A stretch of 64,000 nucleotides of DNA from Escherichia phage GEP101. Shown in pieces: positions 22 to 55,571 of this stretch (the stretch's first letter is position 1; every line of letters starts with the position of its first letter). The notes under the pieces are model-generated. The model was not told the origin of the DNA. It saw only the letters and a list, made by a program, of their open reading frames with translations, and did no database searches. The stretch is from sequence record PQ036202; one strand, written 5' to 3'. A program made the position numbers and the translations under genes.

Positions 22-393
22 ATGAAGTGGCTAGAGGAAGCTTTTAAAAATAATATTGGTGCAATTGTAGTTGGTATTTTTAGTGTTATTGGGATGTATA
101 CCACCATGCAAGTTTCGGAAGGTAAACAAGAAGTGTCTATCACAACAAAGTTACAGCAGTTGGATAATTATTCCAAAAGTAATTATTCAGCTATTCGTGA
201 TTTACAGTCTGATATGAGGCTGCTTCAGCTAGGGATGGAGAACCAGAAAGTCCAGTTAGAGAATGTTAAGGGTGAGAACGCAAAACTTACTAAGACTCTT
301 GATAAATTCTCTGATAGTGTGAACAATCTGGCTCAATCAGTATCAGCCCTCCAAGCTATTACTGAAAAGAACACAAAGAATACTGAAAAGTAA
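22..393 (+). CDS. membrane-anchored coiled-coil protein (hypothetical)
   Basis: N-terminal hydrophobic helix (IGAIVVGIFSVIGMY) then heptad-like Q/L/N-rich segment; hairpin terminator directly downstream. Confidence 0.5.
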   Translation: MKWLEEAFKNNIGAIVVGIFSVIGMYTTMQVSEGKQEVSITTKLQQLDNYSKSNYSAIRDLQSDMRLLQLGMENQKVQLENVKGENAKLTKTLDKFSDSVNNLAQSVSALQAITEKNTKNTEK

Positions 394-5316: not shown

Positions 5317-5519
5317 TTTCTCTTACCACCAATTTCTACGTCAATAACTTGAACATCACCAGCAACATCGAACTTATGGATGATGCTTTCCACAGTGTAA
5401 GTCCAACCATCAATGCGAACCAACTCACCTTCCCGTGGGACTATTGGATTACGTTGAGCTACGGTTGTAGTGGAGTGAACAACATCATAACAGTAGATAT
5501 AGTTTACTAGGACTTCCAT
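5313..5519 (-). CDS. hypothetical protein
   Basis: Track ORF 5313..5618 trimmed to internal Met (ATG at 5517-5519, GAGG upstream) to avoid overlap with next gene; start uncertain. Confidence 0.35.
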   Translation of the reverse strand: MEVLVNYIYCYDVVHSTTTVAQRNPIVPREGELVRIDGWTYTVESIIHKFDVAGDVQVIDVEIGGKRK

Positions 5520-5529
5520 CTTGAAAACC

Positions 5530-5766
5530 TCACTCAATAACAGTAGTGTGTGATTGACCATTTTTGCCATAGCTATAAGATGTTGTTGTTTGAGAGTTTG
5601 GACATCTGACAACAACAATATCTCTGCTTATGGCATCACCATGTAACTTATAGACTTTGCAATCTTGCATCTCTGGTGGGAGGCTATAAGAAGCATTTTT
5701 ATCTTCATAAGAAGGGTTGCACCCAGCTAGAAAAATAACACCAAGTGCAATTACTGCTTTCCACAT
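5530..5766 (-). CDS. putative lipoprotein
   Basis: Start moved to Met9 (ATG 5764-5766 with AGGAGAGG RBS); signal peptide ending in lipobox LAGC. Confidence 0.5.
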   Translation of the reverse strand: MWKAVIALGVIFLAGCNPSYEDKNASYSLPPEMQDCKVYKLHGDAISRDIVVVRCPNSQTTTSYSYGKNGQSHTTVIE

Positions 5767-5952
5767 AATACCTCTCCTATTACTGTTCACGATGTTCTAC
5801 TTCTCTGTACGTTCGTCGATAGTATATAATAAGCTGTGCTAACTCGTTGCTTTTAACATCTGAACGTAGCAGTTGCCAATCAAAACCTTTACCAACTCTT
5901 CCATATAAGCTAAATAATTTTACTTTGCGTTTCATTTTGGTACTCCCAATAC

Positions 5953-37253: not shown

Positions 37254-37488
37254 TATGCAAGTTAAAAAGATGATGGTAAGAGTTGCTCTCAAGTATCTGG
37301 GGGCAGCTACACAATACGAAGTAGCAGAGTACCTCTCTGCAAAGTTTGGTAAAAAATATCTCCCATCGGATTTTACACAGACTTTTATAGACTTAGAGAA
37401 GACGAAGACTATCACTAAGTTACCTGTTAAGCGTCGTAACTTTCGTAATGGGAAACCTACAGGTTTTGGGAACCTCTACGTAATGTAA
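37228..37488 (+). CDS. hypothetical protein
   Basis: 86-aa ORF, terminator downstream. Confidence 0.35.
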   Translation: MHLELIRTDMQVKKMMVRVALKYLGAATQYEVAEYLSAKFGKKYLPSDFTQTFIDLEKTKTITKLPVKRRNFRNGKPTGFGNLYVM

Positions 37489-37494
37489 CTAAAA

Positions 37495-37518
37495 GGCTGC
37501 TTCGGCGGCCTTTTTTAT
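37495..37518 (+). terminator. rho-independent terminator (UUCG-loop type)
   Basis: GGCTGC-TTCG-GCGGCC then TTTTTT. Confidence 0.65.
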
Positions 37519-37546
37519 TTGTATTTTGTGCAGAGTGCTGTATAAT
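37519..37546 (+). promoter_or_regulatory. sigma70-like promoter
   Basis: TTGTAT - 16 bp - TATAAT upstream of transglycosylase gene. Confidence 0.45.
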
Positions 37547-37577
37547 TGTTGTCACGATAAACTAAACAGGAGAACCA

Positions 37578-38126
37578 ATGAAGAAGTTGATTCTAGGTTT
37601 GTGCTTAATGTTTACAGCACACTTATCTTATGCAGTTGACTGCCCAGAGCTATCAATTAGCCAAAAAGTAAATATGTTAAAAGCTTACCAGTATGGTGAG
37701 AATAATATGGGTAAAGGGTGGGGCATCACTCTAGCTGCTATAGCCTTACAAGAGTCAGAGTTAGGTCTGAATATGGAGAATAAAAAGACCCATGACTATG
37801 GTATCTTCCAGAATCACTTGAAGACTGTTGTAAAGCGTAACAAAATCAGTCCTAATGTGGCTAAAAAGAAACTCTTAAAAGATTTTGACTATGCTGCAAA
37901 GGAAACACACAAAGAGCTTGAGTTTTGGACGAAGGTACATGGTCAACCAAAGTCAAAGAAGACTTTACAAAAAGTTTTAGCGTCATATAATGCTGGGTAT
38001 TCGTACAAAATCCCTAAAGCTAAGAAATATTCTCAGGATGTCTATAACAATATGAAAGTTATCGCTCAATGTGAATTTGCAACAAACATTTCTAAGGTAA
38101 ATCATGAAAAAATTAAGAAAGTTTGA
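37578..38126 (+). CDS. secreted lytic transglycosylase (SLT-domain)
   Basis: Signal peptide, catalytic-region pattern ALQESELG ... DYGIFQ ... YNAGY. Confidence 0.55.
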   Translation: MKKLILGLCLMFTAHLSYAVDCPELSISQKVNMLKAYQYGENNMGKGWGITLAAIALQESELGLNMENKKTHDYGIFQNHLKTVVKRNKISPNVAKKKLLKDFDYAAKETHKELEFWTKVHGQPKSKKTLQKVLASYNAGYSYKIPKAKKYSQDVYNNMKVIAQCEFATNISKVNHEKIKKV

Positions 38127-38799
38127 TGAAGTACTGTGTCATGCTTATGACTTGCATCCTCATGAGTTAGGTCTTGATTCCTGTGTATGGACGTCAGAAC
38201 AGTGCAGGGATTTTGAAGACACTGCAAGAGAAGTTGTATGTTCACTTGAAGAGTTCCACACATCAGAACCAATCGTGAACGTTGTGGACAAAGAGACTGG
38301 ACAAACTGTAGGAGTGAGACGTGACAGTCTAGTCATAGTCAATAAAGACCTTGTAGAAAAAGGTAACCTCATCTTAGCAGATATTGATGGCGTTCTTACA
38401 AATTTTAATCACGAAGATTACTCCACAGAGTTGACTGACGGGTCATTTTCACAGTACACTAATCTTCTTGACTCTGTAAGAGCAAAACCAACATACATTT
38501 TCAATATCATTGATGCAATTGCTAATCATGCTACTATCGGACTCTTGACAGCAAGAGGTGAAACTCAGAGAATACCTACTGAGATGTTCTTGAGGCACAA
38601 TATAGAGCATGATTACATGCTTTTTATGCGTGGTTTTGGAACTAACTCTCTAAGTGCAGAAAGTTTAAAAGTGAGGATGATTCAGTCTTGCATTCTGCCT
38701 TACTTTAATATAGTATGTTTTATAGAAGATACAGAGAAGAATGTTCAGAAGGTAAACAGAATCCTTCCACACATTAAAACCATGTTAGTTAAACATTGA
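38104..38799 (+). CDS. HAD-like hydrolase (putative nucleotidase/phosphatase)
   Basis: HAD motif I ADIDGVLT, downstream LLTARG and EDTEKN; true start may be an internal Met. Confidence 0.4.
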   Translation: MKKLRKFDEVLCHAYDLHPHELGLDSCVWTSEQCRDFEDTAREVVCSLEEFHTSEPIVNVVDKETGQTVGVRRDSLVIVNKDLVEKGNLILADIDGVLTNFNHEDYSTELTDGSFSQYTNLLDSVRAKPTYIFNIIDAIANHATIGLLTARGETQRIPTEMFLRHNIEHDYMLFMRGFGTNSLSAESLKVRMIQSCILPYFNIVCFIEDTEKNVQKVNRILPHIKTMLVKH

Positions 38800-38809
38800 G
38801 AGAAAACTT

Positions 38810-39274
38810 ATGAACAATATCATTACGGTAGCACTGGACGTTACGGAAAACAAATCTGAAGTAGTTCGTAACATTATCAAGAGCAACTTTGAGGGTAAAA
38901 TCTTCCGTGCTGTCAATGTAAAAGCAGACGGGAACATCCGGGAATATCGTGCTCTTCTGAATGTTAAGAAACATGTCAAAGGTGCTGGTTCAACGACTGC
39001 ACACAAAGAAAACCTGATGACTATCTATGATATGGGTATGGCTTCAGAGTTAGGTGCTGAAGGTATTGTTAAAGAAGGTGCTCCGTATCGCTCTTTCAAT
39101 CTGGAAACTGCTCTTATGCTTTCCTTTACAAGTGGTTCTAAAACAACTACTTATCTCTTTACTGATGCTGCAACGGTATCTGCTATTAAGGATAGCACTG
39201 TCAAAGCTGGGGTAGCTGCTGCTGCAAAAGCTTCTTCGATGGCTGCAAATGTCCTTGCTAAAGTCCTCAGTTAA
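38810..39274 (+). CDS. hypothetical protein
   Basis: 154-aa ORF, Ala-rich C-terminus. Confidence 0.45.
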   Translation: MNNIITVALDVTENKSEVVRNIIKSNFEGKIFRAVNVKADGNIREYRALLNVKKHVKGAGSTTAHKENLMTIYDMGMASELGAEGIVKEGAPYRSFNLETALMLSFTSGSKTTTYLFTDAATVSAIKDSTVKAGVAAAAKASSMAANVLAKVLS

Positions 39275-39285
39275 GGTTAAGATAC

Positions 39286-39308
39286 AGGCTCCTTCGGGAG
39301 CCTTTTTC
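39286..39308 (+). terminator. rho-independent terminator (UUCG-loop type)
   Basis: AGGCTCC-TTCG-GGAGCCT then TTTTT. Confidence 0.65.
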
Positions 39309-39326
39309 ATTTCAGGAGGTTGTTAA

Positions 39327-39674
39327 ATGACATTTAAAGAGTTCTGTCAAGCTACTTTCATAATTGTTTTCTTAGTTGGGGCAGGTGTCTGGGGAGGATA
39401 CTCCTACAGAGACTACCAAGTTGCTGAAGCTGAGCTAAACAATGAGAAACTGATAAGTGTCGCTAAAGATGCTTATCAGGAAGGTTTAGTCACACTCAGC
39501 ACCAATTACAAAAATGATTTGAAAGACGTGCTTGCTAAGAATAAGCATACAAAAGAGGTACTAACATATGAAAAAACTAAGCCAGAGTTTTATAATGTTT
39601 GTGTTACTGATAATTATGTCAGGGTGTTCAACGAACAGAGTGAACAGTACATTCAAAAACTCCCAAGTAAGTGA
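39327..39674 (+). CDS. i-spanin-like protein (N-terminal TM + periplasmic coiled coil)
   Basis: TM helix FIIVFLVGAGVWGG then charged helical region; lipoprotein ORF embedded in its 3' end. Confidence 0.4.
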   Translation: MTFKEFCQATFIIVFLVGAGVWGGYSYRDYQVAEAELNNEKLISVAKDAYQEGLVTLSTNYKNDLKDVLAKNKHTKEVLTYEKTKPEFYNVCVTDNYVRVFNEQSEQYIQKLPSK

Positions 39675-39837
39675 GAGTGACAAGTACACTCAAGAAGAAT
39701 CAAGATTCACTGTCAAAGGCAACACCGGTAGTGATGTGGCAGCAGCCCTTGAGTTTTATCGTGATGGTTTTTACCAGTGCACAATCAAAGCTAATAATCT
39801 TATTGACATGATTTTATTAGGGAACAAACAGCAATGA
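39568..39837 (+). CDS. o-spanin-like lipoprotein (embedded/overlapping)
   Basis: Signal peptide with lipobox-like IMSGC; begins inside previous gene in another frame with AGAGG RBS. Confidence 0.35.
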   Translation: MKKLSQSFIMFVLLIIMSGCSTNRVNSTFKNSQVSESDKYTQEESRFTVKGNTGSDVAAALEFYRDGFYQCTIKANNLIDMILLGNKQQ

Positions 39838-40103
39838 CAGAGAACGAAGACACTTTCTATGTAGAAGGGTACTTACTGCTACCACGACCAAAAGAAACTT
39901 ATATGCGGGTTGATTTTTCACCAACCATTATGGATAACGTGATGTGTCATATCTTTATGCAAGGTGTCACAGCACAACTTAAGCATGTTGGTAAAGAGTG
40001 CAAAATAAAGGTTGACACTCATCCAGAAATCAAAGAGAATCACTACACATGGTTCTTACCAGACTCTAAAGAAATCTTAGCAGTTCTTAAAACGAGGAAA
40101 TGA
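39834..40103 (+). CDS. hypothetical protein
   Basis: 89-aa ORF. Confidence 0.4.
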   Translation: MTENEDTFYVEGYLLLPRPKETYMRVDFSPTIMDNVMCHIFMQGVTAQLKHVGKECKIKVDTHPEIKENHYTWFLPDSKEILAVLKTRK

Positions 40104-40414
40104 TTATGCAATTCCAGCCAACAAATCGTGGATTTTCTTATGCAGAATTTAAAGATGCTAAAGGAGAGATTTGTACTTTACAAGAAAGTTCATCATATGA
40201 ACCATGTATCTGGTTAGGTGCTAAAGAGGTCTCTGTTCAGTACCTAGATGGTGGCTGGAAAACACTTGATATCCCAGCATTAGTAGGCAAAGATTTTGTA
40301 GGTAACCAAAGAATGAAACTCAACCAAGAACAGGTGAAAGAGTTGTTACCATACCTTCAGTACTTTGCTGAAAATGGTGAATTACCAACAGAGGAACTTA
40401 CAAATGCAGATTAA
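40100..40414 (+). CDS. hypothetical protein
   Basis: 104-aa ORF. Confidence 0.4.
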   Translation: MIMQFQPTNRGFSYAEFKDAKGEICTLQESSSYEPCIWLGAKEVSVQYLDGGWKTLDIPALVGKDFVGNQRMKLNQEQVKELLPYLQYFAENGELPTEELTNAD

Positions 40415-54474: not shown

Positions 54475-54939
54475 TTACTTTGGGTATACACTGTCAAGAT
54501 AAATGTCAGCTTCCATTTTACGTCTGTTTTTCAGACCGTTTGAAGTGACCTTCTTACCTTTGACTGTAACCTTGTTCCACCACTGCATAGCTTCTGCACA
54601 GCCTACCTTATTACCAGCATTGTGGCGCTTGATAAATGTAGAATCCTGCATAGCTGTGATACCGATGTTGTATGTTTCACTTACAAGTGCATCGAACTCA
54701 TTCTGAGAAGTTGGAACCTTGATAGCTTTGTTCACTGCTGCAACAAACTTCTCAACATCTGCGAGAAGATAATGTTCAGCCTGTTCAGCCGTGATTTTCA
54801 TACCCATCTTAACAGGTTTTCCGTCAATACGGATTGTACCATACCCAATTGTTGGGATTCCGGCAGAGTCTTCGTAAGCCTCTAACTTCAGACCTTCAAA
54901 GAACTTAATAGCTTCTAAACCTTTTCTTGAGAGTTGCAT
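54475..54939 (-). CDS. lysozyme (T4/lambda-type endolysin)
   Basis: N-terminal catalytic pattern FEGLKLEAYEDSAGIPTIGYGT (E...D...T triad spacing). Confidence 0.8.
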   Translation of the reverse strand: MQLSRKGLEAIKFFEGLKLEAYEDSAGIPTIGYGTIRIDGKPVKMGMKITAEQAEHYLLADVEKFVAAVNKAIKVPTSQNEFDALVSETYNIGITAMQDSTFIKRHNAGNKVGCAEAMQWWNKVTVKGKKVTSNGLKNRRKMEADIYLDSVYPK

Positions 54940-55571
54940 TATACCTCCCCTGTTGGATTAACTGTAACTGTTGCTGCATTAGACGTTACAGAGCCACCTG
55001 CACCAGTAACTACACAGGTGTAGCTTCCTGCGTCAGTAGTAGTTGCACTTTCTTTGGTGTAAGTTGCAGCAGTTGCGTCTGGGATGTTTTCCTCACCCTT
55101 CTTCCACTGATAGCCTGTTGCATCAGTAGCAACAACACTTAGTGTCAAGGTGTCACCTTCAGTGATTTCTTGATTGGTTGGCTGCTGAGTGATTGCTGGT
55201 GGTTTGACAGCAGCCTTCAGCTTAGCATTCAACATTGAGAATGGTTTAACTCTTGCCAGCCATTCACAGTAAATTGTGTCAACATCTTTACCGTTGATGA
55301 TTGCATACTGTAAATCCATGAAGAAATCAGCAGTCCTCATCTGTGCACCAACACTGTAAAGGAGTTCATCACTAAAAGGGACTTTGTAGTCTGGTTTGTA
55401 GTCAAGCTTCTTAACTTCTGCGATATCAGCTTCAGGCCAATATGAGCTATAGGTGAGTGGTAAAATAGCTTCTTGATATGTTCTAAAATCATATCTCTTA
55501 CCAGCCTTTACATTTGCGATGAAGCCCTTCACAAATTCTTTGAAGTCTGGGTAAGTCTTTGCTTTAATCAT
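54939..55571 (-). CDS. protein with C-terminal Ig-like domain; N-terminus paralogous to upstream gene
   Basis: C-terminal ITEGDTLTLSV...YQW...DAGSYTCVVT...TVTV; N-terminal ~120 aa alignable with 55568-55939 product. Confidence 0.5.
   Translation of the reverse strand: MIKAKTYPDFKEFVKGFIANVKAGKRYDFRTYQEAILPLTYSSYWPEADIAEVKKLDYKPDYKVPFSDELLYSVGAQMRTADFFMDLQYAIINGKDVDTIYCEWLARVKPFSMLNAKLKAAVKPPAITQQPTNQEITEGDTLTLSVVATDATGYQWKKGEENIPDATAATYTKESATTTDAGSYTCVVTGAGGSVTSNAATVTVNPTGEV

Follow-up and report, generated by a model that had tools for sequence, protein, structure and literature searches.

We propose that two overlapping genes of a Felix O1-like phage (Table 1) very probably encode an overlapped-class two-component spanin, machinery that would disrupt the outer membrane of the host in the last step of lysis. 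The DNA analysed here, a stretch of 64 kb referred to as the window, is the genome of a Felixounavirus, that is, of a Felix O1-like myophage. The first gene, ORF1, would supply the inner-membrane component (i-spanin), and the second, ORF2, the outer-membrane lipoprotein (o-spanin). Such a pair is already known and catalogued in this phage group, and the finding is correct but ordinary. The original prediction described a spanin pair with the embedded architecture of lambda Rz/Rz1. Its assignment to the spanins agrees with PHROG families, curated relatives and the survey of Kongari et al. 2018, whereas the word embedded has to be given up, because the two genes share 107 nt and ORF2 continues for a further 163 nt after the ORF1 stop codon. 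The architecture is overlapped.

Table 1. Positions in the window of the overlapping gene pair, its expression and targeting signals, and the dispersed lysis genes.
Feature	Position	Strand	Description
Candidate holin	22..393	+	123 aa; one N-terminal hydrophobic segment
Terminator-like GC hairpin AGGCTCCTTCGGGAGCCT with T-tract	39286..39309 (hairpin 39286-39303)	+	Ends the upstream gene just 5' of the spanin pair
ORF1 Shine-Dalgarno sequence AGGAGG	39314..39319	+	7 nt upstream of the ATG; read from sequence
ORF1, i-spanin gene	39327..39674	+	ATG start; 115 aa
ORF1 predicted transmembrane domain codons	39342..39398	+	Residues 6-24; hydropathy maximum
ORF2 ribosome-binding site GAGG	39555..39558	+	Inside ORF1, 9 nt before the ATG; read from sequence
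ORF2, o-spanin gene	39568..39837	+	ATG start; 89 aa; +1 frame relative to ORF1
Stretch read in two frames	39568..39674	+	107 nt common to ORF1 and ORF2
ORF2 predicted signal peptide	Residues 1-19; Cys codon 39625-39627		Lipobox MSG-C20 (...IIMSG-C20); Ser at +2
Endolysin, T4-lysozyme-type	54478..54942	-	15 kb from the spanin pair, on the other strand

The ORF1 product has the predicted membrane anchor expected of an i-spanin. Hydropathy gives it a short N-terminus followed by a single predicted transmembrane helix, its strongest hydrophobic 19-mer being FCQATFIIVFLVGAGVWGG (residues 6-24, Kyte-Doolittle mean 1.75), and a hydrophobic N-terminal segment is kept in all aligned relatives. Outside the 19-mer, 25% of the residues are charged. 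Models of both proteins were built by AF2 with family alignments, and since their confidence is low (pLDDT 64.5 for the i-spanin, 60 for the o-spanin) we used the secondary structure alone. ORF1 is modelled with helices at residues 3-81 and 95-111, the first of which is, in this model, the membrane anchor and periplasmic stalk. Behind the N-terminal transmembrane helix the original prediction saw a charged helical region; the charge is confirmed, and the helices appear in the model at low confidence. The loop between the helices holds a conserved EKTKPEFYNVC92 (alignment and AF2 secondary structure), and the C-terminal helix (DNYVRVFNE...) holds Y97 and F101-N102-E103. Over its full length (residues 1-115) ORF1 matches PHROG 1152, annotated as 'Rz-like spanin' (1.1e-41), and tblastn places homologues in 402 phage records. 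A Foldseek search of viral models placed the I-spanin from Salmonella phage SP069 first, a weak hit (E 0.017) with nothing but noise behind it. An AGGAGG Shine-Dalgarno sequence upstream of the i-spanin gene is also recorded for Felix O1 in SpaninDB.

The window has a GC content of 39%, a composition at which chance alone yields open frames of 80-90 codons; one of this type, 86 aa long, lies at 39050-39310 on the minus strand. Because the length of an open frame is not beyond chance at this composition, the significance of the pair is carried by the signal peptide, the lipobox and conservation. The ORF2 N-terminus, MKKLSQSFIMFVLLIIMSG-C20-ST, conforms to a PROSITE PS51257-type lipoprotein rule, whose elements are a basic residue close to the N-terminus, a hydrophobic stretch free of charges and [AGS]-C; in a screen of all six frames of the whole 64-kb window, 168 ORFs were at least 60 aa long and only 3 of these conformed. 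The signal peptide and lipobox of the original prediction are therefore both recognised by rule, and its further statement that ORF2 starts inside ORF1, in another frame and behind a ribosome-binding site of its own, also held: the frame is +1, and in phage Meda a ribosome-binding site is annotated at the place equivalent to the GAGG. In the AF2 model the signal helix is followed by a low-confidence linker (residues 20-44), predicted to be disordered, and by helices at 54-75 and 77-87. These two helices hold a conserved EFYRD..Y.C71...N.LID motif, and the invariant C71 (codon 39778-39780) falls within this conserved C-terminal helical region. Mature ORF2 contains no proline, and neither do the mature o-spanins of other Felixounavirus members, so the remark in the original prediction that the lipoprotein lacks the usual proline richness was accurate. 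ORF2 matches PHROG 4180, which carries no assigned function, over residues 1-88 (1.3e-50) and, more weakly, PHROG 456 'Rz-like spanin' (6e-5). Its homologues are found by tblastn in 317 phage records, and the ORF1 and ORF2 matches overlap each other wherever both are listed.

Scans of ORF1 and ORF2 against Pfam and NCBIfam gave no match to a spanin model, only sub-threshold noise, and the Pfam Rz and Rz1 families were absent among matches with E up to 1. Below threshold, the ORF2 N-terminus weakly resembles the signal peptides of assorted lipoproteins in these collections. Profile searches of PDB sequences returned nothing meaningful (best E 0.34-0.71). In SpaninDB (Kongari 2018, PMC6139136) the Felix01 pair is entered as 'ovl', with the i-spanin at 5330-5678, the o-spanin at 5571-5841, an overlap of 107 nt and products of 115 and 89 aa, and the i-spanin sequence given there is almost identical to ORF1. 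Kongari et al. 2018 (PMC6139136) group Felix01, FO1a and UAB_phi87 together as identical, within the overlapped class, and their tables list the Felix01 i-spanin with 66% helix and zero predicted coiled coils. In the Center for Phage Technology record of Meda, an I-spanin and an O-spanin are annotated with the same lengths and offset as ORF1 and ORF2, and i- and o-spanin annotation is likewise present in skuden, Mordin, Mijalis, Sf14-18 and others. Our literature search found annotation-level reports only and no experiment on the Felix O1-type spanin family.

The orthologues in Felix O1 itself (NC_005282, Felix01p014/p015, ORF6/ORF7) measure 348 and 270 nt, lie at 5331-5678 and 5572-5841 with the same offset and the same 107-nt overlap as in the window, and match over their full length. 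The Shine-Dalgarno context is the same, the proteins are near-identical, and the neighbours agree: an SLT-like gene, polynucleotide kinase, a hypothetical gene and the spanins. The few substitutions, such as A34 and E39 in the i-spanin of the window for T34 and Q39 in Felix O1, include none that is structural.

Conservation of the second frame in relatives, which the original prediction named as a check on itself, extends well beyond this group. We assembled 90 loci, comprising the window and 89 relatives from annotated phage records and IMG/VR contigs, which span Felixounavirus, other Ounavirinae, Gordonclarkvirinae podophages, Gorganvirus siphophages and prophage-like contigs of ~30 kb. A single-sequence search of a large protein collection had recovered close relatives only, and the distant ones were reached by profile searches. 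A lipoprotein ORF in the +1 frame is present in 90/90 loci, always overlapped, this count coming from a loosened lipobox screen, as some loci have Asn at -4/-5 or non-ATG starts. In every one of the loci the codon for the lipid-attachment Cys lies inside the i-spanin gene (the lipobox being mostly MSGC or TSGC), the o-spanin frame runs 85-166 nt beyond the i-spanin stop, and the C-terminal o-spanin motif has its invariant Cys. At +2, 89 loci have Ser and one has Thr; none has Asp, in keeping with outer-membrane sorting. Mature o-spanins outside Felixounavirus have one to six prolines in this set. Distant homologues with 26-46% identity, the most distant at 26-33% to the window, keep the +1 overlapped pair; they come from Hafnia and Erwinia Ounavirinae, Gordonclarkvirinae EP335, the Proteus Gorganvirus PM-CJR, Klebsiella phi_270 and the ~30-kb prophage-like contigs. 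The conserved regions of both products are their C-terminal parts, with one nearly invariant cysteine each, which hints indirectly that these parts may bind each other.

Variation among close relatives points the same way. Across 24 distinct Felixounavirus sequences, 28.6% of sites vary in the part read as ORF1 only and 33.1% in the part read as ORF2 only, against 12.1% in the shared 107 nt, where diversity is thus ~2.5-fold lower and a third-position share is not applicable. In each single-frame part the variable sites fall preferentially on third positions of its own frame (47/69 for ORF1, p=4e-9; 38/54 for ORF2, p=3e-8). The few changes in the shared stretch for the most part leave the ORF1 protein unaltered, and in the ORF2 signal peptide they amount to conservative replacements (K/R, I/T, N/S). 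The third-position bias in each frame, together with the mildness of the changes in the overlap, argues that both frames are under purifying selection as proteins. Within these 107 nt, frame 0 carries the most conserved i-spanin motif and frame +1 the signal peptide and lipobox of the o-spanin. The ORF2 N-terminus (MKK/RL followed by a hydrophobic stretch) is kept in distant relatives, with L4 invariant, and we attribute this unusual conservation of a signal peptide between distant phages to the dual constraint on the 107 nt. Kongari et al. 2018 (PMC6139136) describe three mixed-architecture families in which the i-spanin has diverged in the overlap, whereas the Felix O1-type i-spanin is most conserved there.

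The genomic setting is characteristic of the genus. With positions 37400-40200 as the megablast query, 257 phage records matched, the top one at 97.9% identity; 245 of them had at least 80% query coverage, and nearly all of these are Felixounavirus (phages of Escherichia, Salmonella, Shigella and Citrobacter). The genes run in the order rIIA, rIIB, an SLT-like gene, polynucleotide kinase, a hypothetical gene, ORF1, ORF2, small hypotheticals and a phosphatase, an order also annotated in skuden, AYO145A, Meda and Felix O1. The pair therefore sits amid early-type genes such as rIIA/rIIB and polynucleotide kinase, and not inside a lysis cassette. AYO145A and Meda have a terminator annotated at the place equivalent to the hairpin that precedes ORF1, and a promoter scan found none between terminator and ORF1, with an overall count not above shuffled expectation.

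Other lysis functions of the window lie elsewhere. The recognised endolysin, a lysozyme, matches Pfam PF00959 (Phage_lysozyme, 9e-41) and PHROG 7 endolysin (1.6e-57) and is 96.8% identical in a tblastn comparison to the 'lysin' of skuden. The candidate holin is 97.6% identical to skuden_38 'holin', a label given in relatives by homology only, and belongs to PHROG 4038, to which no function is assigned; the authors of the Meda genome paper identified no holin. Linkage to holin and endolysin genes, usual for spanins and not obligatory, is absent from the window, and the genome announcements of Moogle and Meda likewise describe the endolysin and the inner- and outer-membrane spanins of Felix O1-like phages as scattered, with no cassette. 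The original prediction had pointed to a transglycosylase gene upstream of the pair (37578-38126). The Pfam SLT match there is weak, at E 0.0055 and 16.7 bits against a cutoff of 21.3 bits, and we reject the gene as the cognate endolysin, that role belonging to the lysozyme gene; an SLT-like gene nearby is no evidence for a lysis cassette.

Among distant homologues, the pair occupies the spanin slot wherever a lysis cassette exists. The PM-CJR cassette runs from a holin (PF16931) through a small ORF and a CHAP peptidoglycan hydrolase to the i-spanin, whose overlapped o-spanin partner has no annotation. Klebsiella phage phi_270 has a GH108+PG_binding_3 muramidase and small membrane proteins ahead of the pair, and for ~30-kb prophage-like contigs, L033 being an example, the genes immediately 5' of the pair are those of a holin (Phage_holin_3_2) and an endolysin (Peptidase_M15_4). 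Holin matches in these cassettes are to PF16931 and PF04550. The overlapped module is found in myophage, siphophage and podophage backbones, the podophages including Gordonclarkvirinae EP335.

This distribution bears on three other ways of reading the locus. ORF2 might be a lipoprotein with a different role, for example superinfection exclusion or receptor blocking in the manner of T5 Llp or Cor, with ORF1 an unrelated membrane protein and the overlap a matter of gene packing. The company of early-type genes beside rIIA/rIIB, away from the endolysin, would suit such a role, as would the lack of a function for PHROG 4180, the main family of ORF2, and the absence of a proline-rich region. Against it, ORF1 and ORF2 travel together with the same overlap across at least five unrelated phage backbones, in three of which the pair sits immediately after holin and endolysin, and ORF1 belongs to a PHROG annotated as spanin. 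We know of no requirement of exclusion lipoproteins for a co-inherited type II membrane partner, which also counts against this reading, and we consider it very unlikely.

Doubts of another kind concern ORF2 as a gene. It could be a chance open frame that happens to resemble a signal peptide, since frames of 80-90 codons arise by chance in an AT-rich window (that at 39050-39310 on the minus strand among them), and many automated annotations omit or truncate it. The conservation pattern effectively refutes this idea, the least credible of those weighed here: variable sites of the ORF2-only part fall mostly on third positions of the ORF2 frame, the frame, lipobox Cys, Ser/Thr at +2 and C-terminal Cys motif persist in all 90 loci down to 26% identity, and a ribosome-binding site stands 5' of the start. 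Alternatively, the o-spanin may be real and start later, at M17 (39616, 'MSGC...') or at a GTG at 39640, and so have no signal peptide. Existing annotation lends this some colour, in that skuden starts the gene at the equivalent of 39616 and AYO145A at GTG 39640, and a cluster of 303 gene calls in a large protein collection has a 73-aa form beginning at MSGC. A product starting at MSGC, however, would lack a signal peptide and could not reach the periplasm; moreover, the MKK/RL N-terminus is conserved in distant relatives, GAGG precedes 39568, and the 89-aa form is used by Meda, by Felix O1 ORF7 and by SpaninDB. Precisely such a gene-caller bias is described by Kongari et al. 2018 (PMC6139136). 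A late start thus appears highly improbable, more so than a different role for the lipoprotein, and we retain the overlapped spanin pair with the full-length ORF2.

How such a pair would act can be outlined from the lambda Rz/Rz1 paradigm, by analogy with which we infer lipidation, complex formation, disulfide bonding and membrane fusion. The N-terminal helix of the i-spanin would anchor it in the inner membrane as a type II protein, its mostly helical body extending into the periplasm. The o-spanin would be translated from its own start inside ORF1, exported, lipidated on Cys20 and cleaved by signal peptidase II, and its destination would be the outer membrane, in the inner leaflet, as expected for a lipoprotein with Ser, not Asp, at +2. 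Binding between the C-terminal parts of both proteins, probably stabilised by intermolecular disulfides, would form a complex that spans the periplasm through the peptidoglycan mesh. This mesh would hold the complex extended until the wall is removed. Wall breakdown would fall to the lysozyme-type endolysin (54478-54942), which the holin would allow to act; no longer confined, the complexes would then collapse, bringing about fusion of the inner with the outer membrane and release of the progeny.

The experimentally characterised spanin is lambda Rz/Rz1, in which homotypic disulfides are combined with a proline-rich region. The pair in the window shares with it a predicted type II inner-membrane protein and outer-membrane lipoprotein, their encoding in two frames of the same DNA, periplasmic cysteines, and the same presumed function of fusing inner and outer membranes after peptidoglycan breakdown. 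The differences are several. Lambda Rz1 is wholly embedded in Rz and rich in proline, with a penta-proline stretch; the window pair is overlapped, and its mature o-spanin has no proline and a C-terminal region predicted to be helical. The window proteins have no Pfam Rz-family match, and the Kongari table gives no predicted coiled coil for the Felix O1 i-spanin. The lack of a proline-rich region and of a predicted coiled coil, together with a single nearly invariant periplasmic Cys in each subunit, raises the unlikely though not negligible prospect that this family joins or fuses membranes by a variant mechanism, one possibility being a covalent heterotypic disulfide between i- and o-spanin or a helical-bundle junction of their C-termini.

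Two other phages can be compared. Phage P2 LysB/LysC is the prototype of the overlapped class, which was reportedly defined by Summer in 2007 (as also by Kongari in 2018). Compared by description, P2 LysB/LysC and the window pair have the same predicted topology and role, and in both the o-spanin start codon falls within the 3' part of the i-spanin gene, in a different frame, with the o-spanin stop lying past the end of that gene; the P2 genes, however, lie in a lysis cassette, whereas the window pair is isolated from the endolysin. Phage T4 has no lysis cassette. For its PseT.3/PseT.2 genes, Kongari et al. (PMC6139136) describe an o-spanin family that has no proline-rich region and has conserved cysteines, and on this description T4 resembles the window in all three respects. 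The two are set apart, again by description, by the separation of the T4 spanin genes, those of the window being overlapped, and by an o-spanin described as beta-alpha-beta in T4, whereas that of the window is predicted to be helical by the low-confidence AF2 model. We regard these departures from the textbook spanin as variations within a known kind.

The scientific addition made by this locus is small; it shows that a dual-frame lysis gene pair is recognisable from raw sequence. Many records of Felix O1-like phages still lack the o-spanin, leave it hypothetical or truncate it, and because PHROG 4180 carries no functional label, automated pipelines report an 'Rz-like spanin' plus a hypothetical protein. 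Correct o-spanin calls matter since Felix O1-like phages are used for biocontrol and diagnostics of Salmonella and E. coli. For the biology of overlapping genes, the family offers a clean natural example in which a conserved protein motif and a lipoprotein signal are written on the same 107 nt.

The second protein of the overlapped spanin pair, the outer-membrane o-spanin, is easily lost in databases. Gene callers often shorten it, as seen in protein cluster P0008 and in further clusters: a 73-aa form that starts at 'MSGC' has 303 members, other forms have 68 aa, and those of Gordonclarkvirinae relatives have 57 aa. Records of the Felix O1-like phages skuden and AYO145A (our comparison loci L001 and L002) are among those with truncated calls. 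'Hypothetical protein' is a frequent label, and PHROG 4180 is the o-spanin family yet carries no functional label. Overlapped spanin pairs are also found outside Felix O1-like genomes, as an IMG/VR contig (L033, 723-5985) and ~50 similar prophage-like contigs of 28-34 kb carry a lysis cassette composed of a PF04550 holin, an M15 peptidase, and such a pair, an insertion with the tape-measure gene on one side and tail sheath/tube genes (DUF2586, HP1 Orf24) on the other.

Features of the window discussed here
Feature	Coordinates	Strand	Details
Candidate holin gene	22-393	+	123 aa; one N-terminal hydrophobic segment
Predicted lipoprotein ORF	5530-5790	-	lipoprotein-signal rule; LAGC lipobox
SLT-like protein gene	37578-38126	+	182 aa; putative Sec signal and sub-threshold SLT match
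tRNA gene cluster	59230-63798	+	23 tRNA genes

The SLT-like product carries a cleavable-looking Sec signal, MKKLILGLCLMFTAHLSYA before VD, and a sub-threshold match to SLT lytic transglycosylases (E 0.0055). It belongs to PHROG 600, a family without a functional label, and its gene is named 'putative lysin' or 'lytic transglycosylase domain protein' in relatives. We consider this product a candidate second exported muralytic protein, separate from the lysozyme endolysin. The candidate holin shares 97.6% identity with a skuden gene product named 'holin' and falls in PHROG 4038. Because that family has no assigned function and the genome paper of the relative Meda states that no holin could be recognised, it looks unsettled which gene encodes the holin in Felix O1-like phages.

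Just 3 ORFs in the window pass the lipoprotein-signal rule, including, besides the o-spanin gene, a second one that adjoins the DNA ligase gene and matches PHROG 902, a family without a functional label, at 1e-17. Its start is likely an internal ATG, which yields MWKAVIALGVIFLAG followed by the lipobox cysteine of LAGC. The tRNA cluster, of a kind expected in Felix O1-like phages, includes Met x2, Gln x2, Lys x2, and Leu x3. Felix O1-like sequence 96-100% identical to the studied region of this enterobacterial phage also lies inside two GenBank records, the 147-kb GU169904.1 of Staphylococcus phage SA1 and MG065668.1 of Campylobacter phage A126, whose implausible host assignments suggest mixed or contaminated assemblies.

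Within the spanin pair, the same nucleotides (39568-39674) encode both the most conserved i-spanin motif, EKTKPxFxNxC...Y...FNE, and the o-spanin signal peptide and lipobox. Kongari et al. 2018 (PMC6139136) saw the reverse in three spanin families, where the overlap region has diverged. Co-encoding with the i-spanin motif explains why the o-spanin signal peptide is unusually conserved across distant phages.
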